Below are positions 27,115 through 63,374 of a stretch of DNA of 64,000 bases, piece by piece. A program made the translations under genes and the position numbers. Origin of the DNA: a virus. Lineage: Duplodnaviria; Heunggongvirae; Uroviricota; Caudoviricetes; Demerecviridae. The stretch lies in IMG/VR virus record IMGVR_UViG_2757320985_000001; one strand, 5' to 3'. The notes beneath the pieces are model-generated. The model was not told the origin of the DNA, ran no database searches, and was given only the letters and a program-made list of their open reading frames with translations. Numbering within the stretch: position 1 is the stretch's first letter; every line of letters begins with the position of its first letter.

Positions 27115-27131
27115 ATAGTATCCTAGTTAAT

Positions 27132-27209: not shown

Positions 27210-27214
27210 AAATT

Positions 27215-27308: not shown

Positions 27309-27359
27309 GAATTTATGAATATATTATACAGAAAATTTCGGCATTAAGCAAGTGAAATT

Positions 27360-27674: not shown

Positions 27675-27725
27675 ATTTATAAATATATTATACAGAAATT
27701 TTCTATATAAAGCAAGTGAAAATTT
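27666..27725 (-). promoter_or_regulatory. early promoter cassette
   Basis: TTGCTT at 27710-27715 (RC), TGTATAAT at 27687-27694 (RC), GAGAGG leader. Confidence 0.6.
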
Positions 27726-27762
27726 CTGTATAATAGCCCTCGCTTAGAGGGCTATAACTACT

Positions 27763-29548: not shown

Positions 29549-29570
29549 TCAAGCAATCGAATTTTTAAAC

Positions 29571-29647
29571 TTTTTAGTGGAAAATCGCAGGGCACTTAAG
29601 GGTAGCAGGTGAGTGGTGAGGTCCAGAAATTGTTACCCCACTAAAAA
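29571..29647. repeat. Perfect 10-bp inverted repeat (TTTTTAGTGG / CCACTAAAAA) enclosing 57 nt
   Basis: Seen directly. Lies between the nadR start and the TTGACA promoter of the plus-strand island. Confidence 0.5.
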
Positions 29648-29672
29648 TCCGGGGGCAATTTTTAAAGACCCC

Positions 29673-29701
29673 TTGACATTTTCGCTGGGGTAGTGTAAAG
29701 T
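29673..29701 (+). promoter_or_regulatory. sigma70-consensus promoter: TTGACA, 17-bp spacer, TAAAGT
   Basis: TTGACAttttcgctggggtagtgTAAAGT. The -35 context TTGACATTTTCGC is shared with the promoter at 59241. Confidence 0.55.
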
Positions 29702-29762
29702 ATATGTTATGGATGAGTGATCAAAGAGACACACATTTTCTATATACTAGGAGGTGTCAAAA

Positions 29763-30749
29763 ATGACAGATGAAGTAACTAAGAAACCTGAGACCGTAAG
29801 TGAAGTCGCAGCAGAACTGAGACGTCATGAGGAATCAGACAAACATAAGTGGGAGAAGGTCAAAGCCTACGAAAAAGAACATCGTGAACACGATGAAGAT
29901 GATGAAGAAGATGACGATGATGAACATTGTCATAAACATGGAAAACATAAAATGCAAGAACCAGTAAACGTATTCACTAGTGGCTTCCCTGGCCTAATGG
30001 GTGGTTACCCAGCAGTTGCTAACGGTGCTTTCGGTGGTGAAGGTATGGGTCTATTCGGAGCTATCTTAATCGGTGCTCTATTAACAGGCGGATTCGGTGG
30101 TTTCGGTGGTTTTGGCCGCGGTGCTGGTGTTGCCGCTGAGGGAACTGCTGTGGACGCGATCCTTTCTAACCAGGATACTGCAAGTATTCTAGCTGCAATT
30201 AACACTGCTCGTACTGAAGCGAATCAAGGTACTGGTGCTGTTCTGAGCGCTGTTAATGGTGTAGGTGCTGCTCAAGCTTCTAGTACTCAACAGATTCTGA
30301 CTACTGTGTATGGTACTGGTGCTAACCTGTCCAACCAGATCTGTCAGGAGACTCGTAACGTTATTCAGGGTCAGTTTGATCTTTCTCGCCAGATGGATCA
30401 AGCTTTCGCTGCTAACCAGATCGCTCGTGCACAAGACAAGTTTGACTCTGCTCAGATTGCTTTCCAGCAGTCTCTTCAGACCAATAACCAGTTTGCCGCT
30501 GTTCAGGCTCAGATGTGCGCTAACCAGAACGCTATCGAACGTCAGCTTGCTGAGTGCTGCTGTGAACTTCAGACTGCGATCGCTGGTGTAACTACTGCGC
30601 GTATCCAGGACGAACTGAACGAATGCCGTCTGCGTGAAGCAATCGCTGCAGGTAGCGGTGCAAATGGTCAGGTAATCAACCAAATCGCTGTAAGCCTGGG
30701 TGCAATTACTCAGACTCTAGCAGCTCTACAGGCTAAAGTACCAGCCTAA
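29763..30749 (+). CDS. Gly/Ala/Gln-rich protein with an acidic/His N-terminus and a GFGG hydrophobic segment
   Basis: ATG at 29763 with an AGGAGG RBS (the ORF-track start at 29754 is GTG). Host-like codon usage. Function unknown. Confidence 0.6.
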   Translation: MTDEVTKKPETVSEVAAELRRHEESDKHKWEKVKAYEKEHREHDEDDEEDDDDEHCHKHGKHKMQEPVNVFTSGFPGLMGGYPAVANGAFGGEGMGLFGAILIGALLTGGFGGFGGFGRGAGVAAEGTAVDAILSNQDTASILAAINTARTEANQGTGAVLSAVNGVGAAQASSTQQILTTVYGTGANLSNQICQETRNVIQGQFDLSRQMDQAFAANQIARAQDKFDSAQIAFQQSLQTNNQFAAVQAQMCANQNAIERQLAECCCELQTAIAGVTTARIQDELNECRLREAIAAGSGANGQVINQIAVSLGAITQTLAALQAKVPA

Positions 30750-30771
30750 TCTTTAAGGGGAGGAGCCCATT

Positions 30772-31200
30772 ATGAGTAAATATGGTTTTGTGAACAACGG
30801 ATTTAATCAACCAATGGGCTCCCAGCAGCCCATTCCGGGTCTGGATAACCCCTACTTACAACAGTTGCAACAGCGTTTAGCAGAAGCGCAACAGATGCAG
30901 CAGCAACTTCAGCAAAACCCTGGAAGTGTGAGCCCTATGCAAATGATGCAGCAAATGAGTGGGCAGTCGCAAATGCCTCAACAAATGCCTCAACAAATGC
31001 AGCAACAGGTGCCACAGCAGCAAGTTCAGCAACAAACCCAACAACCGCAGGTATCTGCGGAAGGACAGGCAGTACTAGCCCTTTTCGAAGACTTCGCAAA
31101 GACAGAGGACGGGAAACAGCTTGTATCACTTATGGGTAAGTTTAATAGCTTCTGCCAAAGCCAAGTTGCAAAAGCTCAAAATGGTGGTAATAACTCCTAA
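30772..31200 (+). CDS. Q-rich (prion-like) low-complexity protein, 142 aa
   Basis: QQMPQQMPQQMQQQVPQQQVQQQTQQPQ tract. GGAGG RBS. Confidence 0.55.
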   Translation: MSKYGFVNNGFNQPMGSQQPIPGLDNPYLQQLQQRLAEAQQMQQQLQQNPGSVSPMQMMQQMSGQSQMPQQMPQQMQQQVPQQQVQQQTQQPQVSAEGQAVLALFEDFAKTEDGKQLVSLMGKFNSFCQSQVAKAQNGGNNS

Positions 31201-31209
31201 GGAGGAATT

Positions 31210-31404
31210 ATGTGTTGCAGAAAATCTGTTTCGTGCTGCCCAATGCCTGTAGCACGTTGTTGCTCTCCAGCAATGTTTACGCAAATACCGGTGTTCAATC
31301 CGTTTGCCTTTAAGCCTACTCTTATCCTGCCCCCTAGAGTAGATTTTCAGTCAAGATTGGTCTCCCGTATGGGTGGTTGCTGTACACCGAGAGTATGGTT
31401 CTAA
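31210..31404 (+). CDS. Cys-doublet small peptide, 64 aa
   Basis: Four CC doublets (MCC, SCC, RCC, GCC). AGGAGG RBS. Followed by a terminator. Confidence 0.5.
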   Translation: MCCRKSVSCCPMPVARCCSPAMFTQIPVFNPFAFKPTLILPPRVDFQSRLVSRMGGCCTPRVWF

Positions 31405-31407
31405 ACC

Positions 31408-31445
31408 AAAAACAAAAGCCCCTGCCGAAAGGTAAGGGGCTTTTT
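31408..31445 (+). terminator. rho-independent terminator (GCCCCTGCC-GAAAG-GTAAGGGGC then TTTTTC)
   Basis: Hairpin plus U-run seen directly after the 31404 stop. Confidence 0.65.
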
Positions 31446-31457
31446 CTTTTGCCTTAA

Positions 31458-31497
31458 ATACAGAAAAGCCCGCGCTCTCGGAGGAAACGCGGGCTTG
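31458..31497 (-). terminator. hairpin terminator (GCCCGCG ... CGCGGGC) after the minus-strand SPFH gene
   Basis: Inverted repeat seen directly. Convergent with the preceding terminator. Confidence 0.5.
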
Positions 31498-31519
31498 GTT
31501 CGAAGATTACGTGTAACTA

Positions 31520-32464
31520 TTACTTGTTACGCATATCCATGATCATTTGACCATCGTAGCCAGTACCGACAACAGTCTGCGGCACACCACCTTGGTATTT
31601 TTCAGCACGAAGCATTTCAACTTCCAGCTGCTTCCAACGAATCATTTCAGGAGTAATAGTACGTTGCAGAGCGGCGTTAGCTTCAGCTTCTTTCTTAGCT
31701 GCGTACAGTTTAGCATCTGCGTCACGTTCGTTAGCTACTGCCATGTTTTCACGAGCGGAACGATCTGCCTCAGCTTGCTTAACTTTCTGCTGTGCTTCTT
31801 GTTCAACACGAGCCAGTTCAGCTTTTGCAGCGTTAACTTGTTCTTCACGAACTTTGGTGTTCTGTACCTGTTCCATGATTACCGGTGGCAGAGTAATATC
31901 CTGAAGGAATACTTGCTTAACGGTGTAACCATAAGGACGCGCATACTCCTCTACTTCTTGCTGAATAGCAGTTTGCAGTTGAGCCTGAATCTTAGCGTCG
32001 AACAGATCTTGTGCTTTTGGTACAGACTTACCAAACTCACGAATCGTAGATAGCATCTTCTCTTCAACGTACTTGTTCAGAGCTTGATCCTGAGTACCTG
32101 CGTTAACACGGTTCATAGGAGCTTTAGCACCATCAAACTGCAACATAACGGTAATGTCAACTGTAGACTTAAACTTATCCTGGCTAGGAACCTGAAGTTT
32201 ATCCAGTTTCATAGAAATATCTTTCGTACTAAAAGTATCAAAAGAGGCGAATGGGTTGACAATATGGAACCCCGGCAATACAGGATTAGGACTAACTTTA
32301 CCCAGGAAAGTCTGAGTTTTAACCGTACCGTCCTGAACAACTGTATAGGAATTGAGAGCCAGAATAAGAGCGCCAAGACCAACTACAGCACCAACACCCC
32401 AACGTTTAATAGTACGAATTACTTTTTGATCGGAAGTCAGTTCTTTAGTGTTTTTAGTAAACAT
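31520..32464 (-). CDS. SPFH/band-7 (HflK/C-prohibitin-like) membrane protein
   Basis: N-terminal TM segment, SPFH core, and a long Ala/Glu/Gln-rich coiled-coil C-terminus. Confidence 0.6.
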   Translation of the reverse strand: MFTKNTKELTSDQKVIRTIKRWGVGAVVGLGALILALNSYTVVQDGTVKTQTFLGKVSPNPVLPGFHIVNPFASFDTFSTKDISMKLDKLQVPSQDKFKSTVDITVMLQFDGAKAPMNRVNAGTQDQALNKYVEEKMLSTIREFGKSVPKAQDLFDAKIQAQLQTAIQQEVEEYARPYGYTVKQVFLQDITLPPVIMEQVQNTKVREEQVNAAKAELARVEQEAQQKVKQAEADRSARENMAVANERDADAKLYAAKKEAEANAALQRTITPEMIRWKQLEVEMLRAEKYQGGVPQTVVGTGYDGQMIMDMRNK

Positions 32465-32475
32465 ATATTTCCTTA

Positions 32476-32676
32476 TTATTTAGAAGAGTTAGCTACTACA
32501 GTTACTTTAGTTGCAGAAATAAACAGGCTAGCATCCACAGCAAATTCAGGAGCTTTGATATCTCCGTTATGAAATATGACTATACCGGAGACTACTTCAA
32601 ATGCTAGCGCTGTAACATCGGTGGTATTTACTTGTGAATGTTCACCTACTACTTTTACTATATATCGTGTTTTCAC
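32476..32676 (-). CDS. NfeD-like small OB-fold protein (partner of the SPFH protein)
   Basis: 66-aa beta-rich protein encoded immediately upstream of the SPFH gene, as in bacterial nfeD-SPFH operons. Confidence 0.35.
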   Translation of the reverse strand: MKTRYIVKVVGEHSQVNTTDVTALAFEVVSGIVIFHNGDIKAPEFAVDASLFISATKVTVVANSSK

Positions 32677-32702
32677 TTTATTTTCCTAGCAGTTAATAAA
32701 AT

Positions 32703-32777
32703 TGGCCGAGGTGACAGGATTCGAACCTGCATAAAGGAATTTAGAAGACTCCTGCCTATCCCTTAGACTACACCCCG
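32703..32777 (-). tRNA. tRNA-Arg (UCU)
   Basis: Acceptor CGGGGTG/CACCTCG, T-arm GCAGG-TTCGAAT-CCTGT, anticodon stem GGAGT/ATTCC with loop CTTCTAA. Confidence 0.55.
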
Positions 32778-33299
32778 TTTAGGTATTTTTAAGAACTCTT
32801 ATAAAAGCTCTTAAAGATACCCGACGGTAGGTAGGATCAGCCCCCTCAGATTAAGCTCTGCAGCCCTTCCGTCAGACAATATCTTCCAGTTTAAGTCAGG
32901 GTGACTTTGTGGTTATGTTCTCCGTATGTGAAGAACTCGGTTAGGCTTAGGTCATGACTCCCAGCCTACTGCTGCCGCTCAACAGGAATTATCGCGAATT
33001 ACCTGTACTATTGGGCACCATTAGTGACATCTCTCATGTCAGCGTTTCCCACTCTCATATTCACGCGGTCTGTTAGAATCGCACCTCCGATTTTCGATGC
33101 GAAGCTGTATGCCTAGTCTCAGGTTAAACGGGGCACACACTAGGCAGTGATCCCGAGTTCCGAGTTTGGTTGAGGCCGTCAGGTTTCCTCGTGGTTTAGC
33201 TGTTTCGATTCTAACCTAATACTGATCAGGTGGCGTACCTCCTGAACCGTCATAGTATGTACTCCAGCAGCGAATGCTTATCCGGTATAAGCCCGAGTT

Positions 33300-33395
33300 A
33301 TCTGATTCTTTCCGACCGCAGGATTCGAACCTGCATCTTCCACCAGTTACGGTTTGATATTACCGTTTATACTAGGACGGCAGTGTTATCACATA
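33300..33395 (-). pseudogene. tRNA-like remnant (T-arm GCAGG-TTCGAAT-CCTGC, 8-nt anticodon-like loop)
   Basis: Lies in an 840-nt non-coding stretch. Acceptor stem does not pair. Confidence 0.3.
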
Positions 33396-43147: not shown

Positions 43148-45538
43148 TTATAGGTTACAACCACCTGATGCACAACCTGCTGCTTCTTCACCAGCTCCAC
43201 CACCATTTTCAGTGTTGAAGTTAGCGTAGTACCAAGTTTTCCAACCGTACTTAACAGCAGTCATAAAGTCACGAACTACTACTGGGCCTGGAATGATTTC
43301 ATTCTCGAACTTGGTGTAGTCATAGTACATATTCGTACTGATAGACTGGCTGAAGAATTTCTGCATGGTTGCTACCCATTTGATCCACTCGATACGATCT
43401 ACATCATAAGCCAGTTTATAGCTCATTAATGTATCCCAATCAGTTGCACCTGGAGCAATTGCAATTACTTTATTCACTGCACTACCCTTGATAGATACGA
43501 TCTTACGGGGCGGTTCGATAGAGTTAGTAACACCTAGCAGTACAGAGGAACTTTCACCTGGCATCTGAGCAGTCAGAACAGAGTTGCGCATACCATATTT
43601 CAGAATATCTGCACGCAGAGATTCCCAATCCATTTCTAGACCTACAGTTACCAGTTCATCAACAGTTTTCTTGTACGTGTCGATTACCAGAGTTCCTTGC
43701 GAAGGCTTAGTACGATTAAACCAGTCACATGCACCTTGTTCTTTAGCCAGACGTACAGAGGCTTTATGTAGGAAGTAGGACAGCTTTTCAGCTTCACGGT
43801 GAATCCAGTTACGGGCTTCAACACCTTCGTAAGCCAAACCTTCTGCTGCCATTGCACCTGCTGCGTTCATCAGACCAATACCAACGTTACGACGTTTCTT
43901 AGCCGTGTACTCCATAGTTGGGAATGGGTAATCCTGAATCTCGATGATTGTATCAACGAATTTCAGAAGAATGTAGCAAGTTTTCCCCCATTCAGCCAGA
44001 GATTCCATACGACCTAGTACAACACCACCTAAGTTACACAGAGATACTTCACCAATATCTTCTGGACGCATATCGTCTAACTGATCTTGGGTCTTATACA
44101 GCTCCGTAATGTGATGGAATGGACGGGTTGGCTGAGTAATTTCAACACAAAGGTTGGTCATACGAATCGGGTCAAGGAAGTTACCATGACGGTTAGATTC
44201 ACCAATGTGATGAGCATACATACGCCCTGTTTCCATACGGATACGTAACCAAGTATCTAGGATTTCTTTTGCAGAGATTCTAGGAGCTGCTGGAATTGTT
44301 TTTCCTTCGTGGTCGATCTTTGTAAGAGAAGCCACACGTTTCTCCGCTGCCACGTAGATTTCTTCAAACTTAGCCTCATCTTCGCCATAAAACGCTTCAT
44401 GAACTTCTGGTGCGTAGAAGTAGGACATTAGCGTAATATCTTCGTTTTTCAGGTAACGTTTTAATAGAAGGTTGTTAAAGCTCAGAGAGTAATCCATCTT
44501 ATCGATTTTATTCTCGTCTGTAGCACGTTGCTGCTTAACCTGCATCAACTGAATGATTTCAGGATCGAAGTATGGATAAGACACAGTAGCAGAACCGCCA
44601 CGGGTTTGCTGAGTGTTAGCTTTTACTGATCGGTCAATGTGTCGATAATATGGCAGTTTTCCGGAATGCGGGAATGCCCCATTTCGCACCGGATCAGCAA
44701 TTGATCGGCTTTCAAGATGATACCCGATTCCCGCTCTGGCTGCGACCATTTTGAAGACGATGTGCTCGGCTGTGTCGATTGAATCCAGCGTGTCAGTGGA
44801 ATCCACGAGACAACAACTAGCAAATCCACGGTCACTAGAGCGCAGGCCAACCAGTGGCGGCGTAGGAACGTTGATTTTGTGGAGCGACATTGCATTGTAG
44901 AGGTCGATTGCATCTAGAATTGTCCAGTTAGGTTGAGATAACATCGCCATTGCCATACCCATGTAAGCAAACTGCGGGGTTTCATAAATTTCACCAGTTG
45001 CAATATTACGACGGGAATACTTGTCGAAGAACTGTTTCAGCCCACCACTGGTGAATAAACGATCGCGATCATGATCAATAACTTGATTCAGAGCATCAAA
45101 CTGATCATCGCTAATCCATGCACTCATGTCTTCCCAGGCGCCAACACGAACCATATGATCGTGGAAGAAACGCAGAGAAGGAGGTTCAAAGGAATCATAT
45201 AGGCGTTTACGCATCTGCGCAAGACGTAATTCCTTTGCTACAGTATCATATGCTGGGTTGTCTTTGATAAGACCTTCAGCGGCTTTAATTAACACATCTT
45301 GGAGTGTATCGGAGTCTACAACACCTTTGGGTAGATTTTTCAGGGCAGCCATAACTACGGCAGACCAACTTACGTCAGTATCTTTACATGCCCATGCAGC
45401 CCAATCATTGAGTTTTTCAGGAGCAAAGTCCTGAACAGTACCGTCACGTTTAATTACTTTTTCTATACGATGGCTCATTTGGCTTTCCTTTTTGTAGTTA
45501 TCAGGATTTAGGAGATATTCTACTTTGTTTTGAGTCAT
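43148..45538 (-). CDS. nrdA: ribonucleotide reductase class Ia alpha subunit
   Basis: 796 aa. N-terminal ATP cone, catalytic core with the CNLG motif, and a C-terminal Cys pair. Confidence 0.9.
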   Translation of the reverse strand: MTQNKVEYLLNPDNYKKESQMSHRIEKVIKRDGTVQDFAPEKLNDWAAWACKDTDVSWSAVVMAALKNLPKGVVDSDTLQDVLIKAAEGLIKDNPAYDTVAKELRLAQMRKRLYDSFEPPSLRFFHDHMVRVGAWEDMSAWISDDQFDALNQVIDHDRDRLFTSGGLKQFFDKYSRRNIATGEIYETPQFAYMGMAMAMLSQPNWTILDAIDLYNAMSLHKINVPTPPLVGLRSSDRGFASCCLVDSTDTLDSIDTAEHIVFKMVAARAGIGYHLESRSIADPVRNGAFPHSGKLPYYRHIDRSVKANTQQTRGGSATVSYPYFDPEIIQLMQVKQQRATDENKIDKMDYSLSFNNLLLKRYLKNEDITLMSYFYAPEVHEAFYGEDEAKFEEIYVAAEKRVASLTKIDHEGKTIPAAPRISAKEILDTWLRIRMETGRMYAHHIGESNRHGNFLDPIRMTNLCVEITQPTRPFHHITELYKTQDQLDDMRPEDIGEVSLCNLGGVVLGRMESLAEWGKTCYILLKFVDTIIEIQDYPFPTMEYTAKKRRNVGIGLMNAAGAMAAEGLAYEGVEARNWIHREAEKLSYFLHKASVRLAKEQGACDWFNRTKPSQGTLVIDTYKKTVDELVTVGLEMDWESLRADILKYGMRNSVLTAQMPGESSSVLLGVTNSIEPPRKIVSIKGSAVNKVIAIAPGATDWDTLMSYKLAYDVDRIEWIKWVATMQKFFSQSISTNMYYDYTKFENEIIPGPVVVRDFMTAVKYGWKTWYYANFNTENGGGAGEEAAGCASGGCNL

Positions 45539-45601
45539 TTTGCAAGTACAATTTTACAGATAAAAAGAGCCCGGATATTTTCATACCCAGGCTCGTCTGT
45601 C

Positions 45602-45844
45602 TTACCATTTAAGTTTATCGGTCATATCAGTTAGTTTCTGTCGTATTTCCTTAGCCATAAGAATGTCTATAGAAGTACTCAGTTCATTATAGTTGAAAGG
45701 CCGATTTGGATTAGAGGCTACAATTTTCCACGCTAGGGTAGTCTTAGGACTTTCTTCCCCTTCCTTACGTGTAATCATATTAGCAGCACTCAATGAAGTA
45801 CGGTGGATCTTAGTTTTGCGGTGCAGATGTACGACGTTTCCCAT
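45602..45844 (-). CDS. hypothetical protein, 80 aa
   Basis: ORF track. Confidence 0.45.
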   Translation of the reverse strand: MGNVVHLHRKTKIHRTSLSAANMITRKEGEESPKTTLAWKIVASNPNRPFNYNELSTSIDILMAKEIRQKLTDMTDKLKW

Positions 45845-45845
45845 A

Positions 45846-46607
45846 TTACACCTTCCCCATATCCTTAAAGATATCGTAGAATGCTTTAGACTCTGGTGAG
45901 CGAACGTTGTCGATCAGTTCGATCATAGAGAAAGGAGAGTTTTCGTACTTCTCATAGACTTCCATAAGAAGTGCTAGACCTGAATCACCCTTGATGTCTT
46001 TCTGAGCTATATCTCCACAGATAATTAAACGACAATCTTGTCCTACACGAGTCAAAAGACAGATCATTGCTTCAACGGAGATATTCTGAGCTTCATCGAC
46101 AATTACATAGGAGTTGTTGAAAGTTCGGCCACGGGCATGTTCGATAGCCAGGAATTTAATTTTCTGACGTTCGACATATCCTTTGTAGGCGTGATCACCG
46201 ATTGCCCATTTCATGCCATCGGCTATTGGTTCCAACCAAGGCTCTAGCTTTTCTGCCAGATCACCTGGGAGCATACCAAGAGATTTACCTAGAGGTTCGT
46301 TCGGACGCACGAGGATCACTTGCTCAATATCTGAGTGAATGTCTACGAGTTCCTGAGCTGCAAGAACGGACGGAATAAAGGTTTTACCAGTACCTGGTTC
46401 ACCAATACCCACAGTCACTGTGTTGTTCTTGATCATATTGATATATGATTTTTGCTCACGGTTTTTACCAACTAGGGATTTAGCAACTGGATTGGCGTAA
46501 TCACCAGAGAAATCTGCTTGAATTACGTTACTCTCATACTTGTTGCCACGCTTTCTTGAACCATTGCGGTTCTCTCTTTTTTGACGTGCTTTTCCCATAA
46601 ATAACAC
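45846..46607 (-). CDS. phoH: PhoH-like ATPase
   Basis: Walker A GEPGTGKT. PhoH family length and architecture. Confidence 0.85.
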   Translation of the reverse strand: MLFMGKARQKRENRNGSRKRGNKYESNVIQADFSGDYANPVAKSLVGKNREQKSYINMIKNNTVTVGIGEPGTGKTFIPSVLAAQELVDIHSDIEQVILVRPNEPLGKSLGMLPGDLAEKLEPWLEPIADGMKWAIGDHAYKGYVERQKIKFLAIEHARGRTFNNSYVIVDEAQNISVEAMICLLTRVGQDCRLIICGDIAQKDIKGDSGLALLMEVYEKYENSPFSMIELIDNVRSPESKAFYDIFKDMGKV

Positions 46608-46654
46608 TCCTATAGTGTACTTCGCTAACAGAGGATCAACAAAAAGATCTTGTT

Positions 46655-46715
46655 TATCAACTTACAAATATATTATACCAATATATACGGGAGAAAGCAA
46701 CTACAATTTTAAATA
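46655..46715 (-). promoter_or_regulatory. early promoter cassette (TTGCTT-17-GGTATAAT) for phoH
   Basis: Member of the repeated promoter family. Confidence 0.6.
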
Positions 46716-46892
46716 AGCCTATGATATTGCATTTAAATAAAAAATTTGCTTGCTTTTATTGGGAGATGTATGGTACTAGATAATCATTTTATATCGCGTA
46801 CACGGGTGCGTGATTATACTATTTTTAGTAGAGGTTGGCAAATAAAATTTTTTGACTCAGATCATGTTACAGAACTTTATAGTAAAATATTG

Positions 46893-46921
46893 TTGACATC
46901 CGCCTTCGAATGAGTTATAAT
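46893..46921 (+). promoter_or_regulatory. sigma70-consensus promoter TTGACA-17-TATAAT upstream of nrdD
   Basis: TTGACAtccgccttcgaatgagtTATAAT seen directly. Confidence 0.65.
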
Positions 46922-46950
46922 AGTAGTCTTAGTTAGAGAAGGAGGGTATA

Positions 46951-48825
46951 ATGAATCGCAATGAAGAACTAAAGTATAAAGGAATGCAGTCCTTGATTCG
47001 AAACTGCAAAGAAATTATCGAAGGTTCAGCAGATGAAGAGCTGCTGTTTAATAATGCCAATAAGCCCTCAGAACGTTTCCCTACACAAAGGGATATGCTT
47101 GCAGGGGAATTGAGTAAATATCTGATTCTGGAAGAAATGCCAATCCAGATTCGAAATGCTCACATGATTGGTGATATTCACTTCCATGATGCTGATTACG
47201 CTGCGTTAGGTATGACTAACTGTTGCCTGGTTGCTTTGGAAGATATGTTGAAGAATGGTATGAAGGTTGGTAATGCTGAAATCAGTACACCAAACTCTAT
47301 TACTACTGCGGCTGCTATCACAGCTCAGATTATCACTCAGGTTAGTTCACATCAATATGGGGGTACTTCTGTAGACCGATTAGATGAAGTATTGGCTCCT
47401 TATGTTCGTAAGTCTTATGATAAGAATCATGCGTTTGCAAAGCGTTGGACTAAGGATGAAGCTAAAGCATCTGTAATGGCTACGGAAATGACTGAGAAAG
47501 AAGTTTACGATGCCTGTCAGGGCCTGGAGTATGAAATCAATACGATGTTCAACTCTAATGGTCAAAGTCCGTTTATTACCTTTGGTTTTGGTCTAGGAAC
47601 TTCTTGGGAAGCACGTCTTGTACAGAAAGCAATACTAGAAGTACGTATGGATGGTTTGGGTATCAATAAACGTACAGCTATCTTCCCTAAACTGGTATTT
47701 GTTTTGCGTGAGGGCGTAAACATGAAACCTGGTGATGTTAACTATGATATCAAGAAGTTAGCTATGAAATGTACTGCTGAACGTATGTATCCTGACTACA
47801 TCAGTTATGATAAGGTTGTAGAAGTTACGGGGGACTACAAAGTCTCTATGGGCTGTCGTTCATTCCTGGCTGCTGCGGAAGATGGTGAAACTTCTGGTCG
47901 TAACAACTTAGGCGTTGTTTCCGTAAACCTTCCTCGAATCGCTATCGAAGCGGAAGGAAATATTGATCTATTCTTCGATCTGCTTGAGCTGCGTGTGGAT
48001 ACCGCGTTAAAAGCATTGGAGTGGAGGGTTGATCGCTTAAAATACATTCAAGCTAAAGCTGCGCCCATCCTCTATATGTCAGGAGCCTTTGGATTACGTC
48101 TGGGGCCAGATGAATATGTATTTGATCATTTCTACAAGCGTGCTTCTGTATCTCTAGGATATATTGGTTGCCACGAAATGTTGCAGCTCATGTTTGGTAA
48201 AGATGTAGATACAATGTCTGAGTCTTGTATCAAGTTCGTTCAACGTGTGCTACAATACATGCGTGATCGTGCTGATCAGAAGAAGGAAGAGACTCAATTA
48301 GGGTATAGTCTGTATGCTACACCATCTGAATCTCTATGTGATCGCTTCTGTCGCCTAGACCGTGAGTATTTCCCAGAGCATGAAGATATTCTGGCTAAAG
48401 GATATTACACTAATTCCCATCACCTTGATGTAGAACGTAAGGTTGCTCCAAATGTGAAGTTTGATTATGAGTCTAACTTTACTCCTATTGCTTCTGGTGG
48501 GTGCATTTCCTATGTGGAATTACCGGATATGAAACGATTCCCTGATGCACTGGAATGGGTTATTAACTATGCTGCAAGTAAAGTTCATTACTTCGGTATT
48601 AATACTCCAGTAGACTCTTGTGGGGAATGTGGGTTCTTGGGTGAAACTATAGCTTCTGAGGATGGTTTCAAATGCCCAATTTGTGGCAATCATGATCCTG
48701 AGACTCTTGAGGTAACTCGTCGAGTTTGTGGATATCTTGGAAATCCAGGTGCTCGTCCGTTTAACCCAGGTAAACAACATGAGGTTATGGGTCGAGTGAA
48801 ACATCAAGACATTCGCGCTAAATAA
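46951..48825 (+). CDS. nrdD: anaerobic ribonucleoside-triphosphate reductase
   Basis: 624 aa. C-terminal glycyl-radical motif RVCGYLGNP. CxxC Zn ribbon upstream of it. Confidence 0.9.
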   Translation: MNRNEELKYKGMQSLIRNCKEIIEGSADEELLFNNANKPSERFPTQRDMLAGELSKYLILEEMPIQIRNAHMIGDIHFHDADYAALGMTNCCLVALEDMLKNGMKVGNAEISTPNSITTAAAITAQIITQVSSHQYGGTSVDRLDEVLAPYVRKSYDKNHAFAKRWTKDEAKASVMATEMTEKEVYDACQGLEYEINTMFNSNGQSPFITFGFGLGTSWEARLVQKAILEVRMDGLGINKRTAIFPKLVFVLREGVNMKPGDVNYDIKKLAMKCTAERMYPDYISYDKVVEVTGDYKVSMGCRSFLAAAEDGETSGRNNLGVVSVNLPRIAIEAEGNIDLFFDLLELRVDTALKALEWRVDRLKYIQAKAAPILYMSGAFGLRLGPDEYVFDHFYKRASVSLGYIGCHEMLQLMFGKDVDTMSESCIKFVQRVLQYMRDRADQKKEETQLGYSLYATPSESLCDRFCRLDREYFPEHEDILAKGYYTNSHHLDVERKVAPNVKFDYESNFTPIASGGCISYVELPDMKRFPDALEWVINYAASKVHYFGINTPVDSCGECGFLGETIASEDGFKCPICGNHDPETLEVTRRVCGYLGNPGARPFNPGKQHEVMGRVKHQDIRAK

Positions 48826-51683: not shown

Positions 51684-52079
51684 ATGGAACAAGTATTTTG
51701 GCGTCAGATAGATCCTAGTTTGGTAGAGCGTGCTGAGGGGCTCCTTGCACGTTGGTTGGGGGTTGACAAGGTTAGTGTAACATTTCCGTTTACTTCTGTA
51801 ACAGACCCTAGTGTAGGTGTCTTTGTGGACGAAAATGAAGATGATGGTTGGGAAGCTGACTGGAATGAATTGTCCAGCATGGGCTTGATTGTTGCCCTCA
51901 ACTTCTCTATATTCCATCCACGTGGCTTAGCCATTACACGTGACCCCGAAACTGGTGAATCCCCTTATCTTTTGCAAGTAGAAGATGATATTTGGGAGTA
52001 CACCGAAGATATTCTCGAAGAAGCTAAAGGTCAATTAAATCGCATTGGAATCTATGTCCCAGGCCTAAATGATGATTGA
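51684..52079 (+). CDS. hypothetical protein, 131 aa (paralog B)
   Basis: Shares W(K/N)EL..MGL..ALN ... TGE.P ... G(Y/I)..PGL with 51246-51674. Confidence 0.55.
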   Translation: MEQVFWRQIDPSLVERAEGLLARWLGVDKVSVTFPFTSVTDPSVGVFVDENEDDGWEADWNELSSMGLIVALNFSIFHPRGLAITRDPETGESPYLLQVEDDIWEYTEDILEEAKGQLNRIGIYVPGLNDD

Positions 52080-52085
52080 TTTTCA

Positions 52086-52130
52086 TTAGCTCAATCCTGA
52101 TTACCGAGTCATTTTGGCTCGGTTTTCTCT
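52086..52130 (+). terminator. rho-independent terminator (ACCGAGTCATTTTGGCTCGGTTTT)
   Basis: Hairpin plus T-run. Confidence 0.6.
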
Positions 52131-52149
52131 GTGCTCAAAGACACTGATA

Positions 52150-52215
52150 GCACCTTCGGAAAAATTTTACTTGCAGGATGCTCAAAATCTTGATATAATA
52201 TTTATATTGAATTGA
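52150..52215 (+). promoter_or_regulatory. early promoter cassette variant (TTGCAG-17-TATAAT plus conserved leader) with no ORF nearby
   Basis: Seen directly. The next start codon is at about 52767. Confidence 0.5.
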
Positions 52216-52766
52216 GAGACATTAGTAAAAATTGATTTTGCTAATTTTTCTTGTTTACAATCCGCAATACGGAACAGTTAGGCTGCCCCATTAAGGGTTG
52301 TTTTAACTATTACTAGTGTTTATACTGCATTAGTTAATTATCAATTAAGTGATCTGCGTACCCTGAATTCGGAAAGGTAAATCCAAACCGTGCATATTTA
52401 GCTCGTTATATAGGCAGAGCTTTATATGGGGGTGCGAACGAAAAGAGCAGCGAATGGTGACACGTCCAGTAGCCACCTACCAATAGGATAGTGAGGGCAA
52501 TCAGAATCGGCTTAGCGGCCAATGACCTAGGTTCTGATCTGGATAAGAGTTAAGAGAGCGCAGCACTGAGGTATGATAACTTATTCATACTGCTTGATGA
52601 TGATTAATGTTTGTGTAAATGGTAGTAATAGTTGTTCTATTCTTTTGAATAGTCCTAAAGAAAGATATCCGAATAACCAACATAGGAGTATTGTTGTGTT
52701 CTCAATCCTACAAGGTCACGCAGGATTTCCAGAGATAAAGCCACTGGCATCTGGAAAGAGATCAAA

Positions 52767-55484
52767 GTGGAAGACTACACCTTTGCAAAGCGATTCTCTA
52801 AAGAGCATCCAGAAGGTAAACCAGCTTCCATGCCCTTCAAATTTGATGTACTTGAAGAACTTGACCCGCAAAACCTTGCTGAAATGTTACCTATCATGCG
52901 TCGTCTTACCAAAGACCCGCATATTGTAGCTATTCGTGGTAAATGTTTAGCTCCAAAAGATAATGTGCGTCGTACCAGAGGAAACTTTAATGTATCCAAT
53001 CCTAGTCATATTATTGCTATGGACGTGGATGGTATTGTAGATACTGGTGGCTATGACAAGTTTAATCTTGTTGGCATGGCACGTCATATTATCAAGATGT
53101 TAAATAGTATTAGTGAGGATATGTTTCCTCTTGATGCAGGGTTTATTGCTCATGCATCATCTTCGGCTGGCTTAAAACCAGGTATCCGAATGCACTTAAT
53201 GCTAGAATCTAATGTCAAGGTAACGCAGGGACAGTTAAAGTTCTTATTTACATCTATCAATGACAGTAGTAAGCAAAAGTATGGTTTTGATATTGCTGAC
53301 TTAGCTTATTATTCTTCTGTTCAGCTTCACTATTTCGCAGATCCCTTATTTGATGATGGTATAGTCGATCCGTTTAAAGCGGAGAATAAACCACGTCTTG
53401 TGTATGTTAAGGGTTCGAAAGTGAATCTACCCAATAACCTAGTTGACTTTGAAACAACTAGAGGTGAGTTTAAAGAAGAATTCTACTCCTTACTTGACCA
53501 AATTAAAGGCAAGAAGGCTGCATCTGATAAAGTGGAAGAAACCATCAGCGAACTAGAAGAAGCTGAGGATGGAGTGTACCTGCGTATTATTCCAAAACTT
53601 TATCACAGAGCGTTAGAAGATGGTGTTGACTTTACGTGGTTAGAACGTGAGATTAAACCAGCTTTATCTGAGTATATTGCGACTAAAGATAATAGTCGCA
53701 ATATTCAAGATTACTTTAATAACGGTCGTAAGCAGGCTCTCAAAGCCTTTGTAAATAACTCCAAACGTGAGATTCCACCAAACTTAAAAGGTGTACCATT
53801 AAAACGTCTAGACACAGATTCTCCACCAGAAGTTCCATACCTGAAAATTAACATTGTACCACCAAAAGGACATTTAACATTTGTTAAGGCAAGTCTTGGT
53901 ACAGGTAAAACCACAGCAGTAACTAAGTGGCTAGATGCAGGTGTTCTTCCAGGAAACTTTATTGCAATCACGAATACTAGGGCACTTGTATCTTCAAACG
54001 CGAAGAAATTCGGTGCTGGTCAGTATGATAAGTCAGTTGATATGCTGAACTTCAAACGTGGTGCCATTGATCGTATGTCTTCAACTATTCACTCTATCCA
54101 TAAGTTCAAGAGCTTTGTGGGTCAGATTGATACGATCTTTATTGATGAATGTGACGCAGTAATGAATGATCTGTTATTCGCTCCGGTTGTTAAAAACCGT
54201 CGTGAATGTATACAGGTCCTTCGCGATATTCTTATTACTGCTAAAACGGTGATCTTATCTGATGGTGATATCAGTGCAGAAACGATTGAAGCCTATGGTT
54301 CTTTGATTGATTTTGATAAACCAGTTGCATTCTATAATCATCACCGTAAAATGCTGGCGAAAGCTCACGCTTATGAATTCCCTGACGAATCCAGTATTTG
54401 GGTTGCACTTCAAACATCTCTAGAGATGGGTGAGAAGTCAATCCTAGTATCTGACTGTGGACCGGATGAACTGAATGAAAAAGGAATGGCATTACGTCGT
54501 AATACTGGTGCGTTAGTTAAAGAAATTCACTCAAACTCTACGTCTGATGTAGATATCCGACGTATTCTGGATTATACAACTAATGAGCTAATTGATCAAC
54601 AGATTGATTGTTTGTTATGTAGTCCATCTGTAACGAGTGGTGTTGACTTTAACTATTTTGATAACGTATTCGTAATCACTAGAACCTCAAACCAAGCGCC
54701 AAACATGCGTTTCCAAGCAATCAGGCGCGACCGTGGTGCTCGGAACATTTATTATTTTATTGATAAATCTACGAGTGGATTTTCTGCGGGTTCCGAGCAA
54801 TATAATATTGATGAGGGTTGGGTTGAGTTAGCTCAGCAGCTGTATGCACGTCGTCGTGAACTGGAGTCCAGAAACTATACTAGTACTTTGCGTTATTATC
54901 TGCTTGATCAGGGTGCAACTATTGATATTTTCAGTGAAAGCTGGGGAACTATCGAAGGTGCAGGCAAAGAGTATACAGAAGAGCGAATCAAAGCTATTTT
55001 GCACTCAACTCCTGAATATTGCGCACCACGTCATGCAGATGCCTATGAAGCTAAATTGCTTCTGGTTCGCTATTATCACCTGGATTCTATTAAAGATGTA
55101 ACAGTGGAACACGTTGAACAATATATCAAAGATAAACCGAACGATAGAGCTGCATTTTTCCACAAGATGCACGATATGTTCTGGGAAGATATTAAGAAGT
55201 GTTCAAATGTAACAATCAAACCGTTTATCGAAGCTCTTAAGAATAAGAAGAAGGATTTCTTCCTTAAAACAGGTCAGAGTGCTAACCCAAAATATGCTCG
55301 TATGTACCTCGGCATGATGGGTATTGGTAAAGATCTGGATACGGAAAAGATTGTGGACTGGTACAGAACTTACTGTAAGATCGAATGTATGCCGATTCCA
55401 GTTAAGTTTATGACAGATGAAGAACGTCAGATGCATGAGGAAGCTCTTGCTGAATTGGGGGCTAGAAATGACAGCGAAGAATAA
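52767..55484 (+). CDS. putative replication protein: N-terminal primase-polymerase-like domain fused to a P-loop NTPase/helicase
   Basis: hIIAMDVDG (DxD-type), then Walker A SLGTGKTTAV and Walker B IFIDECDA. GTG start at 52767; an ATG near 52830 is possible. Confidence 0.5.
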   Translation: MEDYTFAKRFSKEHPEGKPASMPFKFDVLEELDPQNLAEMLPIMRRLTKDPHIVAIRGKCLAPKDNVRRTRGNFNVSNPSHIIAMDVDGIVDTGGYDKFNLVGMARHIIKMLNSISEDMFPLDAGFIAHASSSAGLKPGIRMHLMLESNVKVTQGQLKFLFTSINDSSKQKYGFDIADLAYYSSVQLHYFADPLFDDGIVDPFKAENKPRLVYVKGSKVNLPNNLVDFETTRGEFKEEFYSLLDQIKGKKAASDKVEETISELEEAEDGVYLRIIPKLYHRALEDGVDFTWLEREIKPALSEYIATKDNSRNIQDYFNNGRKQALKAFVNNSKREIPPNLKGVPLKRLDTDSPPEVPYLKINIVPPKGHLTFVKASLGTGKTTAVTKWLDAGVLPGNFIAITNTRALVSSNAKKFGAGQYDKSVDMLNFKRGAIDRMSSTIHSIHKFKSFVGQIDTIFIDECDAVMNDLLFAPVVKNRRECIQVLRDILITAKTVILSDGDISAETIEAYGSLIDFDKPVAFYNHHRKMLAKAHAYEFPDESSIWVALQTSLEMGEKSILVSDCGPDELNEKGMALRRNTGALVKEIHSNSTSDVDIRRILDYTTNELIDQQIDCLLCSPSVTSGVDFNYFDNVFVITRTSNQAPNMRFQAIRRDRGARNIYYFIDKSTSGFSAGSEQYNIDEGWVELAQQLYARRRELESRNYTSTLRYYLLDQGATIDIFSESWGTIEGAGKEYTEERIKAILHSTPEYCAPRHADAYEAKLLLVRYYHLDSIKDVTVEHVEQYIKDKPNDRAAFFHKMHDMFWEDIKKCSNVTIKPFIEALKNKKKDFFLKTGQSANPKYARMYLGMMGIGKDLDTEKIVDWYRTYCKIECMPIPVKFMTDEERQMHEEALAELGARNDSEE

Positions 55485-61014: not shown

Positions 61015-62487
61015 ATGACCTTGTTTAACGTGCAAGCTGTAGTGTTGAAGATGCTTCTCGCTTCTGAACAGAAGCAAATAGCATTGGAAACATTCTCAAA
61101 ACTGCATAAAGATCATTTTAATGACGCTTTCTCCTCAATTTACCAAGCCGTCCAGAATTATTATAAGAAATATAACGCAATGCCGTCCATTGACGCACTG
61201 ATGCTTGAGGCCAATAGGAACGCCCGCCTTTCTCAAGCTCTTGTCGTCTTAGCTAACACTCAAATTCCAGAAGTGAGCATGGAACAGGCACTTGAAGTCC
61301 TAGAAGCCGAATATACACAGGATCTATTCCTGAAACTTCTAGAAACAGACGTGCTTCAAGATTTAACAATGCTGGATCAGGGAGAAATTCTCAACCGAGT
61401 TGCCTCCCTTCACTTAAAATTAGAAGAGAAAGTAACGAATACTGGAAAGGTATTCAACGCAGACACAATGCGTATTTTCCAGAGAGAAGAAGATACCAAA
61501 CTGAACTTGATCGCTCTTGGTATTTGTAATGAGTTCGACGCTCAAATTGGTTTAGCTCGCACAGAAACGTTACTGCTTGGTGGTTGGCGTGGTACTGGTA
61601 AATCCATTATCTGTTCAAACATACAGGTTCAGCAATATTTGAATGGAGACATTGCTCCATACTTCTCAATTGAGATGAAAGAGCACGAAGTGTTTAGACG
61701 TAATCTGGCTATGTTAGCTGGAGTATCTGCATTAGCAATGCGTAATAACACTCTTGAAGGTGCTGCTCTGTTGAGATTAGCCAGAACTAGGGCTAGGATG
61801 TTTAATGGGGGTGAAGAGCTTTTCGATAACTTCGTTAAGCAATACACTATGGCTAAAATGAGTGACTTCTATGATATGGAAAGTAAACTCCTTGAAGGCT
61901 ATGAGCTTCACACTCCTATGATCATCGTTTACGATCCTGAACTGTCTATTACGACGGTTGACGTAGAATTAAATAAACTAGTTGCTAAATATGGTGATAA
62001 GGTTACTGTAGCTCTTCTAGACTATATTAACCAAACAAGACTTCCAGATTCAAAGACCATTGATATGTATGACTGGAAAGAACAGATGGTTGTTAGTTCA
62101 TCTTTCAAATCTATCTGCCAGAAACATAACGTGGCTGGTGTTGCCCCTTACCAGATTGACCAAGATGGTAGAACGCGTATGTCTAAAGGGATTCTTGATT
62201 CCGCAGATATGGCTGCTAATCTTAATGCTGCAAAAGCTGATAACGGTCAAGGTGCTATTATGTTTGACTTCGTTAAGACTCGTTCCTCTGATAGTGTGAA
62301 GTTTATGCCTAAGATGAACTGGGAAACTCTGCGAATGGATAACACTACCAACCTAGCAATGGAAGATATTGCGCAAATGGAAGCTGAGTTCGTTATTCCT
62401 ATTGAAAAGGATAAACCAGCTCAACCTAAACGTGCTAAGAAAGACAAAGCTGAAAATTCAACAGGTGAACAGGCCAGCGATATATGA
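61015..62487 (+). CDS. DnaB-like replicative helicase
   Basis: P-loop GGWRGTGKS. RecA-like core. The start chosen is the ATG with an AAAGGAGA RBS, inside ORF 60964-62487. Confidence 0.55.
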   Translation: MTLFNVQAVVLKMLLASEQKQIALETFSKLHKDHFNDAFSSIYQAVQNYYKKYNAMPSIDALMLEANRNARLSQALVVLANTQIPEVSMEQALEVLEAEYTQDLFLKLLETDVLQDLTMLDQGEILNRVASLHLKLEEKVTNTGKVFNADTMRIFQREEDTKLNLIALGICNEFDAQIGLARTETLLLGGWRGTGKSIICSNIQVQQYLNGDIAPYFSIEMKEHEVFRRNLAMLAGVSALAMRNNTLEGAALLRLARTRARMFNGGEELFDNFVKQYTMAKMSDFYDMESKLLEGYELHTPMIIVYDPELSITTVDVELNKLVAKYGDKVTVALLDYINQTRLPDSKTIDMYDWKEQMVVSSSFKSICQKHNVAGVAPYQIDQDGRTRMSKGILDSADMAANLNAAKADNGQGAIMFDFVKTRSSDSVKFMPKMNWETLRMDNTTNLAMEDIAQMEAEFVIPIEKDKPAQPKRAKKDKAENSTGEQASDI

Positions 62488-63374
62488 GTAGAATAACAGA
62501 ACTACTTGATCTGAAAGGCATTGAATACAAAGACACAGGTGGGGACATCCTCATCTGTTGTCTCAATCCAGATCATGATGATAAACACCCAAGTTTGCGT
62601 ATTGATCCTGAATCAGGTATTATGCACTGCTTGAGTTGTGGCTTCGGTAGAGGAATACCGAGCATTTACCATTATTTTAATGAGACTCAGTACAGACAGT
62701 CACCAAGATTGTCACAAGTACGTAAAAAGATTTCAGAGATTAGGAATGGATCTACGAATCTTGCAATTCCTGAATCTGCTTACCTTTTCGAAGGTGATTT
62801 CCGAGGTATCAGTTCTAAGACCTTGAAGAAATATTTTGCTTTCCAACATCAAGCAGACTGGGAAGGCAGAATTGTATTCCCAATAACAGATGCTGTTGGA
62901 CGCAATATCCTATTTCTGGGACGTTCTATAAACAGTTCTGCCCCTCCTAAATACTTAGTAAAACCAAAACAAGTTTCACCACCGATTTTCCCTGTACGAT
63001 ATAATACACCAGTTCTTGTTCTAGTTGAAGGTATCTTTGATATGTTAAATCTAGAAGATAACGGTGTGGATTATGCTTCTTGCTGCTTTGGTACACATCA
63101 GTTTACATCTGATAACATTGCTGATAAGTTCAGTCCTTACATTATTGCTGGAGTAAGAGTAGTAGTTATCCTATTAGATAATGATGCCTCTGGTAATAAA
63201 GCTGCTCAAGCACTAGCGAAGCTAATTCGTACAAAAACACGTTTAACACCTGTAGTTGGTAACTTCCTTCTTCCAGAAGGCAAAGACCCAGGTGATTTAA
63301 ATAAAGAAGAGATCGATATGTTGGCTCAACGTATTGAAATTTTAGTTGCCGAATCGCTCAAAGATTTGGTATAA
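62484..63374 (+). CDS. DnaG-like DNA primase (Zn ribbon + Toprim)
   Basis: CCLNPDHDDKHPS...HCLSCG Zn ribbon. Toprim LVLVEGIFDMLNL and DNDASG. Confidence 0.7.
   Translation: MSRITELLDLKGIEYKDTGGDILICCLNPDHDDKHPSLRIDPESGIMHCLSCGFGRGIPSIYHYFNETQYRQSPRLSQVRKKISEIRNGSTNLAIPESAYLFEGDFRGISSKTLKKYFAFQHQADWEGRIVFPITDAVGRNILFLGRSINSSAPPKYLVKPKQVSPPIFPVRYNTPVLVLVEGIFDMLNLEDNGVDYASCCFGTHQFTSDNIADKFSPYIIAGVRVVVILLDNDASGNKAAQALAKLIRTKTRLTPVVGNFLLPEGKDPGDLNKEEIDMLAQRIEILVAESLKDLV

Follow-up and report, generated by a model that had tools for sequence, protein, structure and literature searches.

An apparently undescribed large structured RNA in the leader of the T5-family replication-initiator gene D2

Introduction

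Phage T5 has been a model for seventy years, and its D2 gene is essential for DNA synthesis. The locus considered here raises two questions that bear on the start of T5 replication: what is the long stretch without genes that lies directly in front of D2, and what kind of protein does D2 encode? The locus lies at positions 52,080 to 55,484 of a 64,000-nucleotide (nt) stretch of viral DNA (IMG/VR record IMGVR_UViG_2757320985_000001), the whole of which is called the window in this text. A preliminary description made from the sequence had proposed, for these positions, a protein of 905 amino acids (aa) fusing a primase-polymerase-like domain to a helicase, preceded by an orphan promoter and a structured leader.

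The window belongs to Salmonella phage 100268_sal2, a T5-like member of the genus Epseptimavirus (Demerecviridae), with which the queried stretch shares 100% identity; over 500 T5-like genomes contain this stretch. It forms the transcription unit of D2, the replication-initiator gene of the T5 family: the 100268_sal2 record labels the open reading frame (ORF) 52767-55484 as 'replication origin binding', the equivalent gene of T5 is D2 (T5p106, obp), and the T5 records place a terminator, the early promoter T5P32 and D2/obp at the equivalent sites. The D2 protein has ~91% identity to the T5-type cluster, and the leader region (691 nt) has ~91% identity to T5. The protein is therefore the product of an already known gene, while the leader RNA appears to be undescribed, and it is this RNA, not the protein, that carries the interest of the finding. 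The overall explanation developed below, in which the D2 unit has a conserved plus-strand leader fold, D2 is a three-part protein and a role of the fold in cis is favoured, is put forward with moderate confidence.

A conserved fold in the D2 leader

The untranslated leader extends over ~490 nt (~52206-52695). The gap contains no ORF of at least 50 aa on either strand, and among small leader ORFs none reaches that length and none is kept between variants. As noted in the preliminary description, the leader is richer in G+C than its surroundings, with 47-48% in the centre of the gap (52375-52600) against 33-34% on the flanks. The plus strand of this core is purine-rich (GC skew +0.16, AT skew +0.1 to +0.2), and an A/T-rich stretch lies 3' of it. 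The multiple stems that had been proposed for the leader agree with its folding energy, as the minimum free energy (MFE) of the plus strand lies below that of shuffled sequences (z = -3.66, with 0 of 100 shuffles as good); for the minus strand, z = -2.75.

The stronger evidence comes from related phages. Loci around D2 homologs, 53 of them from IMG/VR and the others from assemblies, were compared and are designated here by L numbers. Two consensus structures were evaluated against controls in which the pairing partners were slid, and against 500 shuffles. The first, A5, is an RNAalifold consensus on 20 Tequintavirus and Epseptimavirus leaders belonging to about three clades, and has 100 consensus pairs in 16 helices. 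In this set, pairing holds in 99.8% of cells and drops to 36-49% when the partners are slid, double changes are found in 20 pairs against 1-3, none of the 500 shuffles is as good, and the covariation score is 0.230 against at most 0.048 in the controls. The second, A9, covers eight sequences from five lineages (V2, Sugarland, DU_PP_V, My1 and KEY), in which a core of ~380 nt gives 86 pairs in 15 helices. Here 89% of cells are paired (38-45% when slid), double changes affect 52 of the 86 pairs (13-18 when slid; 0/500 shuffles as good) and the covariation score is 0.465 against ~0.10 when slid; the contrast with the slid controls is inflated in both sets, because each structure was scored on the alignment from which it was derived. 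Independent events can be recognized in the helix GAUCUGCG/CGCAGC, where the T5-type clade has UA in place of CG and the single sequence L026 has AU in place of GC at two pairs. Moreover, about 17 of the 100 A5 consensus pairs are G.U. The opposite strand would have A.C in their place, which assigns the fold to the plus strand, the sense of early transcription.

Judged from these alignments, the fold is kept by compensatory substitutions in Tequintavirus, Epseptimavirus, Sugarlandvirus, two Pectobacterium-phage lineages and an Erwinia phage, and the comparison strongly supports a large conserved RNA structure that is specific to the plus strand. The leader had been called structured in the preliminary description, and the relatives bear this out: instead of being poorly conserved and unstructured in them, its pairing is maintained by compensatory changes.

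The leader fold comprises a 5'-terminal hairpin (P1), a GAACAG..GGCUGC hairpin, long-range closing helices of ~30 bp, a multi-branched core of ~250-300 nt and a GGCU[UAGC]GGCC hairpin, all on the plus strand. P1 is a 16-bp hairpin at 52214..52252 (GAGAGAC-AUUAGUAAAA ... UUUUGCUAAU-UUUUCUU) and corresponds to RNAalifold helix 1 (A5 columns 3-19/25-41); hairpins of different sequence occupy the same site in L036, L038, L039, L042, L063, L065, L068 and L069. It is followed by a 5' domain at 52257..52301 (A5 helix 2) with the conserved hairpin GAACAGUUAGGCUGC at 52272-52286. This hairpin motif is conserved in six lineages, an A-U pair being replaced by G-C in L068 and a U.G pair by C-G in L069, and in every lineage 293-311 nt separate it from the AAGUUGCCACC loop. 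In L069 (88-150), the GAACAGCUNGGCUGC hairpin motif occurs twice in tandem, ~50 nt apart.

The 5' strands of the closing helices lie within 52304..52359 (A5 helices 3-6), where 52304-52313, 52320-52335 and 52349-52359 pair, with compensatory changes, with 52625-52634, 52602-52618 and 52558-52566, respectively. The corresponding 3' strands, together with a hairpin at 52571-52584 (A5 helix 14), take up 52558..52634, and the inverted repeat formed by these helices was also found independently as 21-nt arms at 52305-52325 and 52613-52633. Inside the core, an island domain at 52501..52537 consists of an outer helix (52501-52508/52530-52537), the hairpin GGCU[UAGC]GGCC (52509-52520) and a 9-nt 3' bulge. 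Its sequence CUUAGCGG does not vary among any of the 17 distinct sequences obtained, and covariation is seen in the pairs that flank it (GGC/GCC, GAC/GUC, UGC/GCA, UCUC/GAGA), with double changes in 4/8 pairs of the outer helix among close relatives and in 8/8 across lineages. MAFFT failed to register the 3' strands of this outer helix across lineages, and a duplex-energy test was used instead, in which the helix proved more stable than shuffled flanks, with a Fisher p of 9e-6 over 11 lineages. Just 3' of the core, the hairpin CUAUUC-uuuu-GAAUAG (52637..52652; A5 helix 15) is neutral with respect to covariation because it is identical in 20/20 sequences. The last element is a small hairpin at 52681..52698 (A5 helix 16), in which part of the Shine-Dalgarno sequence AGGAG is paired with the ancestral start codon GUG (52696-52698) and which shows C-G to U.G variation only.

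Distribution and variants of the leader

A non-coding leader of 480-620 nt behind a T5-type promoter is found in Tequintavirus, Epseptimavirus and Sugarlandvirus, and likewise in the Pectobacterium phages DU_PP_V and My1, the Erwinia phage KEY, Providencia PR1-like phages and several metagenomic lineages. More distant D2 homologs have no gap, or only A/T-rich promoters beside a divergent PhoH gene. Within the leader, the first ~105 nt after the promoter are identical in a five-way alignment, even where the promoter has given way to a cassette with an HNH gene. For the middle ~300 nt there are two widely differing versions, V1 in the window and in T5 and V2 in T5_ev212 and others, with the island GGCTTAGCGGCC kept in both; conservation returns in the 3' part. 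When IMG/VR was scanned for the motif pattern CTTAGCGG...AGTKRCCAYC, 66 matches resulted, and the second motif was present only in already known T5-like loci.

Two covariance models were built. R1, made from the island of three V1 sequences, proved too closely tied to sequence and recovered no more than the hairpin in other lineages, while R2, representing the V2-type 3' domain, recovers all its seed lineages with 73-144 bits. Matches of R2 to T5 (V1), L069 and L042 are weak, and there is none in the Vibrio phages, L063, L067, L070, L071 and L073. The best match of R2 outside the seed (L065:4226-4317, from a PR1-like phage, 20.9 bits, E = 0.0014) falls in coding DNA at the D2 stop and the start of the downstream ORF (D2 at 1501-4281), not in the syntenic leader, and is probably spurious, because E-values from the short calibration are rough.

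Several points limit the evidence for the structure. Apart from the inflation of the contrast with the controls mentioned above, the independent lineages are few (about three clades in A5, five in A9), and the counts ignore phylogeny. Covariation would be the same whether the folded molecule is an RNA or a single DNA strand of that sense. In addition, the V1 interior of the window and T5 is strongly divergent from the V2-type core, and R2 matches the window only weakly and only in the syntenic island domain (52482-52537, E = 0.12). Because of this weak match, the window is best described as carrying a divergent interior in a shared frame made up of P1, the 5' hairpin, the closing helices and the island domain.

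Insertions at this site, and further non-coding regions upstream of D2 homologs, were seen in other phages. An insertion of ~97 nt (L023:2381-2478, also in L030 and L040; equivalent to window ~52252) has its place precisely between the P1 U-run and GUUUACAAUCC. With a TTTTTCTT direct repeat on its flanks, and present in V1 as well as V2 backgrounds, it has the look of a small mobile insert or a product of recombination. In L021, the P1 hairpin is duplicated. Vibrio pVp-1-like phages (L048-L052) have a long non-coding leader, ~650 nt, upstream of the D2 homolog with a near-consensus promoter, its first ~130 nt conserved, its core variable and its layout as in T5. This leader is without the CUUAGCGG island, has no thermodynamic signal (MFE z = -0.9) and has no R2 match. 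In L071 (1-1260) and L073 (410-1400), more than 1 kb without gene calls lies upstream of D2 homologs with 46-52% identity; this non-coding DNA is relatively rich in G+C, with 39-44% over the 1 kb before D2, followed by a terminator and a fresh promoter, and L073 carries a tRNA at 336-406.

Comparison with known RNA families was negative at all levels. With Rfam 15 at gathering thresholds, no leader match was obtained in the window or in 16 related loci, where only tRNAs and chance matches were reported; at E <= 10, the region 51900-53000 gave only a chance Hrs1 match on the opposite strand, across the terminator, and at E <= 5 nine related loci gave no match. No covariance model of riboswitches, T-box, RNase P, tmRNA, group I/II introns, GOLLD, ROOL, OLE or HEARO in Rfam 15 matched. 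A riboswitch-like element had been among the possibilities raised in the preliminary description, and the Rfam scan returned neither a riboswitch nor any other family. Full-text literature searches found this leader nowhere described, and it appears to represent an undescribed family of large structured RNAs.

Boundaries of the D2 transcription unit

The upstream operon ends at an intrinsic terminator on the plus strand (52103..52130), identified by a terminator scan as the stem ACCGAGTCA/TGGCTCGGT (52103-52123) followed by the T-run TTTTCTCT. The T5 records mark a rho-independent terminator at the equivalent site, in agreement with the terminator first reported at 52086-52130. Downstream lies a strong T5-type early promoter on the plus strand (52157..52199), recognized by its sequence and by the T5 annotation as the equivalent of T5P32. 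It has the form of a sigma-70 promoter, with the -35 hexamer TTGCAG (52171-52176), a 17-nt spacer, an extended -10 element TGaTATAAT (52191-52199) and an A/T-rich stretch upstream of the -35, from which transcription of D2 would be expected to start near 52206. A simple consensus promoter scan did not list this promoter (52171-52199), because its -35 hexamer matches only 3/6 positions. The promoter cassette placed at 52150-52215 in the preliminary description is thus present, but it is not an orphan, as it is the promoter of D2 itself.

The interval between the upstream terminator and the leader is a site of HNH gene insertion in several T5-like phages. HNH endonuclease genes with their own promoter are found at L005:1016-1468, L006:1546-2125 and L021:~2150-2420, which correspond to window 52130-52200. 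In T5, another HNH gene, absent from the window, lies directly 3' of D2.

The start of D2 also had to be revised. The window reads GGATTTCCAG, where its nearest relatives L010, L011 and L041 (99% identical) and T5 read GGATTTTCCAG: the T-run at 52722-52724 is TTT in the window and TTTT in the nearest relatives (compare L010:2913-3005). In these relatives and in T5, D2 starts 23-24 codons earlier, at a GTG that lies 7 nt behind GGAG and is equivalent to window 52696. These additional codons are coding, since the substitutions between T5 and T5_ev212 in this part are almost all synonymous. The sequence comparison thus places the ancestral start of D2 at GTG 52696, and its first 23-24 codons survive in the window as a vestigial, out-of-frame segment (52696..52766, plus strand). 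Because the T-run is one base shorter and the frame is broken, GTG 52767 becomes the first in-frame start, which accounts for the deposited 905-aa annotation. The GTG 52767 start adopted in the preliminary description is therefore an artefact of the 1-nt shorter T-run, and the ATG near 52830 offered there as an alternative is an internal Met. Counted from the ancestral start, the leader is ~490 nt long (~52206-52695) and not 550-570 nt as first stated. The same frameshift of the first D2 codons is present in 118970_sal2, and the shorter T-run could reflect either a genuine mutation or an error in sequencing the homopolymer. This correction of the start codon matters for annotating the genome of 100268_sal2 and its close relatives.

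The D2 protein

D2 of T5 has been characterized as an ATP-dependent bipolar helicase, amber mutants of which make no DNA (Wong et al. 2013, PMC3632103). Its authors assayed helicase, ATPase and DNA-binding activity, proposed D2 as the replication initiator, and described a helicase core, a helix-turn-helix and coiled coils; a primase-like N-terminal domain and a structured leader are not mentioned (PMC3632103). According to the models obtained here, D2 consists of three parts, namely a primase-polymerase-like domain of the type found in archaeo-eukaryotic primases (AEPs), a helix bundle and a UL9-like superfamily 2 (SF2) helicase.

The N-terminal region (52767..53801, plus strand) contains the AEP-like core (~aa 25-230) and the alpha-helical bundle (~aa 237-332). 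The hhhDhDG motif of the preliminary description is found as IIAMDVDG at aa 82-89. Residues D86/D88 (hhhhDhD), S131/H143 (SSSAG..hH) and D178 show no change in any of 52 homologs, whose identity goes down to 27%, and D86xD88, S131..H143 and D178 form what reads as the pattern of AEP motifs I-III. The AlphaFold (AF2) model of aa 1-345 has a predicted local distance difference test (pLDDT) score of 89.4, and nearly all of its top 50 Foldseek matches are AEP enzymes, the exceptions being two entries for Rep68 of adeno-associated virus at ranks 46-47; the best AEP match has E = 0.014 and a probability of 0.97, the scores being modest. A profile search of 1.84 billion representatives gave 2421 relatives. 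Some distant ones among them (E ~1e-25) carry PriCT_2 (PF08707) directly after the matched core, and another carries a DUF5906 NTPase. PriCT_2 classically follows AEP cores, and its presence in these relatives may be taken as an indirect link of the D2 core to AEP families.

On the other hand, searches of curated collections speak against the AEP assignment: Pfam at E <= 10 returned no AEP family for 30 N-domain sequences, and a PDB profile search with the N-domain returned no AEP match. Fold match and three catalytic motifs invariant in the 52 homologs nevertheless uphold the AEP/PrimPol call made at first, and the models support an AEP fold with DxD, S..H and D motifs for aa 1-230; the domain is accordingly referred to here as AEP-like, that is, primase-polymerase-like in its predicted fold and motif class. 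It would not be the only primase of the phage, because a canonical DnaG-type primase (62484-63371) and a DnaB-type helicase (61021-62484) are also encoded in the window, as the preliminary description had stated. If the AEP reading is true, a phage with DnaG/DnaB-type enzymes carries a second priming module in the style of eukaryotes and archaea.

The remainder of the gene, up to the stop codon (53802..55484, plus strand), encodes the UL9-like SF2 helicase and a C-terminal helical region. The Walker A/B NTPase that had been recognized there consists of GTGKT (aa 378-382) and DECD (aa 460-463), and both motifs, together with R654/R656 (motif VI), are invariant in the 52 homologs. The only Pfam match on D2 is Herpes_ori_bp (PF02399; aa 367-509, 22.1 bits against a cut-off of 20), and the only protein found in a PDB sequence search with D2 is the origin-binding protein (OBP) of herpes simplex virus 1 (HSV-1), with E = 0.005. 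For the model of aa 346-905 (pLDDT 87), Foldseek places HSV-1 OBP chains (9hgj/9hgi) at ranks 1-4, with E = 2e-14 to 2e-12 over 548-579 columns, while generic SF2 helicases start at E = 2.5e-10, four orders of magnitude behind the best HSV-1 OBP match. TM-scores between D2 and HSV-1 OBP are ~0.49, because of which the domain orientations are considered to differ. D2 is, by analogy, a candidate sequence-specific origin binder.

Possible roles of the leader

Three kinds of role can be considered for the leader, namely control of the initiator, origin function, and a free noncoding RNA (ncRNA). The favoured reading, held tentatively, is that the structure acts in cis on the D2 transcript. It is favoured because there is no terminator between the fold and D2, either in the window or in T5, because of the hairpin that joins ribosome-binding site and GUG, and because the closing helix is of the type cut by RNase III. 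On this reading, it would be the fold that governs how stable the initiator mRNA is and how it is processed and translated. The closing helix could serve as an RNase III-type substrate, a duplex of ~30 bp being the kind that this enzyme cuts, the ancestral GUG would pair with part of its own ribosome-binding site, and the conserved loops might be contacts for a protein, possibly D2 itself, or take part in tertiary contacts. Three points are unfavourable to a purely cis-acting role. A near-consensus sigma-70 promoter (TTGACA, 18 nt, TATAAT) lies at L063:1437-1467, between the element (island at 1091) and the D2 start; in L071/L073 a long non-coding region, possibly homologous to the leader, is cut off from D2 by a terminator and a promoter; and a fold of 15 helices and ~400 nt is far larger than known translational operators.

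Instead of acting on the D2 message, the leader could belong to a replication origin, which is judged rather unlikely. As with ColE1 RNA II or the T4 oriF/oriG transcripts, the structured purine-rich transcript would stay on the DNA as an R-loop and be processed to a primer or open the duplex, with D2 loading there; as a variant, the displaced plus DNA strand would fold alike and act as a loading or priming signal like the ssi sites for RSF1010 RepB'. The absence of DNA synthesis in D2 amber mutants and the proposal of D2 as initiator fit such a role (PMC3632103). The element lies immediately 5' of D2 across Demerecviridae, and an origin beside the initiator gene is the usual arrangement in plasmids and phages. 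The purine-rich plus strand of the core and the A/T-rich stretch after it also point this way, as does L063, where D2 has its own promoter and the element therefore need not serve D2 expression. Its position in T5, 59.0-59.6 kb of 121.75 kb, is in the middle of the genome, and electron microscopy by Bourguignon in 1976 reportedly mapped early T5 origins near the centre; multiple origins, however, have been reported for T5. A repeat search of 52000-52900 found only short two-copy matches and no iterons or repeated binding sites, and the cumulative GC-skew minimum is not at the leader but 6-8 kb to its left (~44000-47000), where leftward (PhoH) and rightward (NrdD) transcription diverge. Moreover, the origin transcripts of T4 and T7 are not known to depend on an elaborate conserved fold.

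A stand-alone large ncRNA, comparable to the phage-associated RNAs GOLLD and ROOL, is an unlikely alternative. It would be excised, for example by RNase III cutting the closing helix, and would work in trans, whether as scaffold, decoy, ribozyme or anti-defence RNA; the place before D2 would then be no more than a convenient site of early expression. A core of ~380-430 nt with 15 helices is typical of ornate large RNAs, as are the conserved loops UAGC, AAGUUGCCACC and GAACAG..GGCUGC, and the ~30-bp closing helix resembles the processing stems of rRNA precursors. The V1/V2 interior is exchanged like a cassette inside identical flanks, which suggests an autonomous module, and the L063 promoter between element and D2 indicates that the two can be uncoupled. 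Yet no terminator follows the element in the window or T5, no large-RNA family of Rfam matches, and the element has been found solely upstream of D2 homologs, the IMG/VR motif scan having given only known loci. That the leader is non-functional DNA, such as a decayed gene, a mobile-element remnant with terminal inverted repeats or a recombination scar, is very improbable; its apparent structure would then be due to chance or to inverted repeats in the DNA. The site is an insertion hotspot in relatives (HNH genes and the ~97-nt insert with TTTTTCTT repeats), the 21-nt arms at 52305-52325/52613-52633 resemble terminal inverted repeats, and the interior exists in two very different versions; but phages that are 10-15% apart in their coding genes share identical first ~105 nt, double substitutions keep the pairing far beyond the 21-nt arms in five lineages, and the length between the two motifs is constant (293-311 nt). 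G.U pairs make the fold strand-specific, unlike DNA palindromes, and no ORF remnant is common to the variants.

A bolder proposal, which is improbable as a whole, is that the leader is the primary origin of T5-like phages, as a folded pre-primer or loading RNA or as a displaced DNA strand. D2 would recognize the invariant UAGC and AAGUUGCCACC loops, prime or extend through its AEP domain and open the duplex through its helicase. If this were true, initiator and origin would form an RNA-guided pair for which tailed phages offer no described counterpart. Whichever role applies, the leader adds an apparently new large structured RNA to a system that is open to experiment, a covariation-supported fold of ~400 nt that is unannotated in hundreds of T5-like genomes and absent from Rfam. 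In addition, an AEP-type domain before a UL9-like helicase gives D2 a concrete predicted activity.

Other features of the window

A block of 29-31 tRNA genes lies on the minus strand (17798-33381), as is typical of T5-like phages; two Rfam tRNA matches in it (25174-25245 and 33310-33381) were missed by ARAGORN. The 'Rad' anti-retron factor of T5-like phages was considered and set aside, as it is a protein in the tRNA region and unrelated to the leader.

Comparison with known systems

The closest known system is D2 of T5, an ortholog with the same neighbours, promoter, terminator and leader as in the window, from which the window gene differs by the loss of the first 23-24 codons from the frame. 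HSV-1 UL9 shares the SF2 helicase architecture with D2, with a sequence identity of only 12-14%; UL9 has no AEP domain and unwinds 3'-5' only, whereas D2 is bipolar. In its order of domains, D2 resembles pRN1 ORF904, the poxvirus D5/E5 proteins, the PrimPol of African swine fever virus and the AEP-SF2 proteins of the All3500 family, in which an AEP core is followed by a helical (PriCT or helix-bundle) domain and an NTPase or helicase. In the All3500 family, AEPs joined to remote UL9-related SF2 helicases are on record (Kazlauskas et al. 2018, PMC5862659). Most AEP-helicase fusions use superfamily 3 helicases, in contrast to the SF2 helicase of D2, and the D2 AEP core matches no curated sequence family.

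Some examples of RNAs comparable to the leader are ColE1 RNA II (~550 nt) and the oriF/oriG transcripts of T4, which are likewise promoter-driven untranslated RNAs of similar length, located in or beside replication functions; in the case of RNA II, folding determines the use of the replication origin. The leader shares no sequence or Rfam similarity with them, and its RNA runs on into a protein-coding gene. GOLLD, ROOL, OLE and HEARO are RNAs of several hundred nt, of unknown function, with many covariation-supported helices, conserved loops and an association with phages. The leader is like them in size, in its many covarying helices, in its conserved loops and in its phage association, and it is set apart from them by the lack of an Rfam match, by its occurrence in one phage family and by its fixed place as the 5' leader of one gene.

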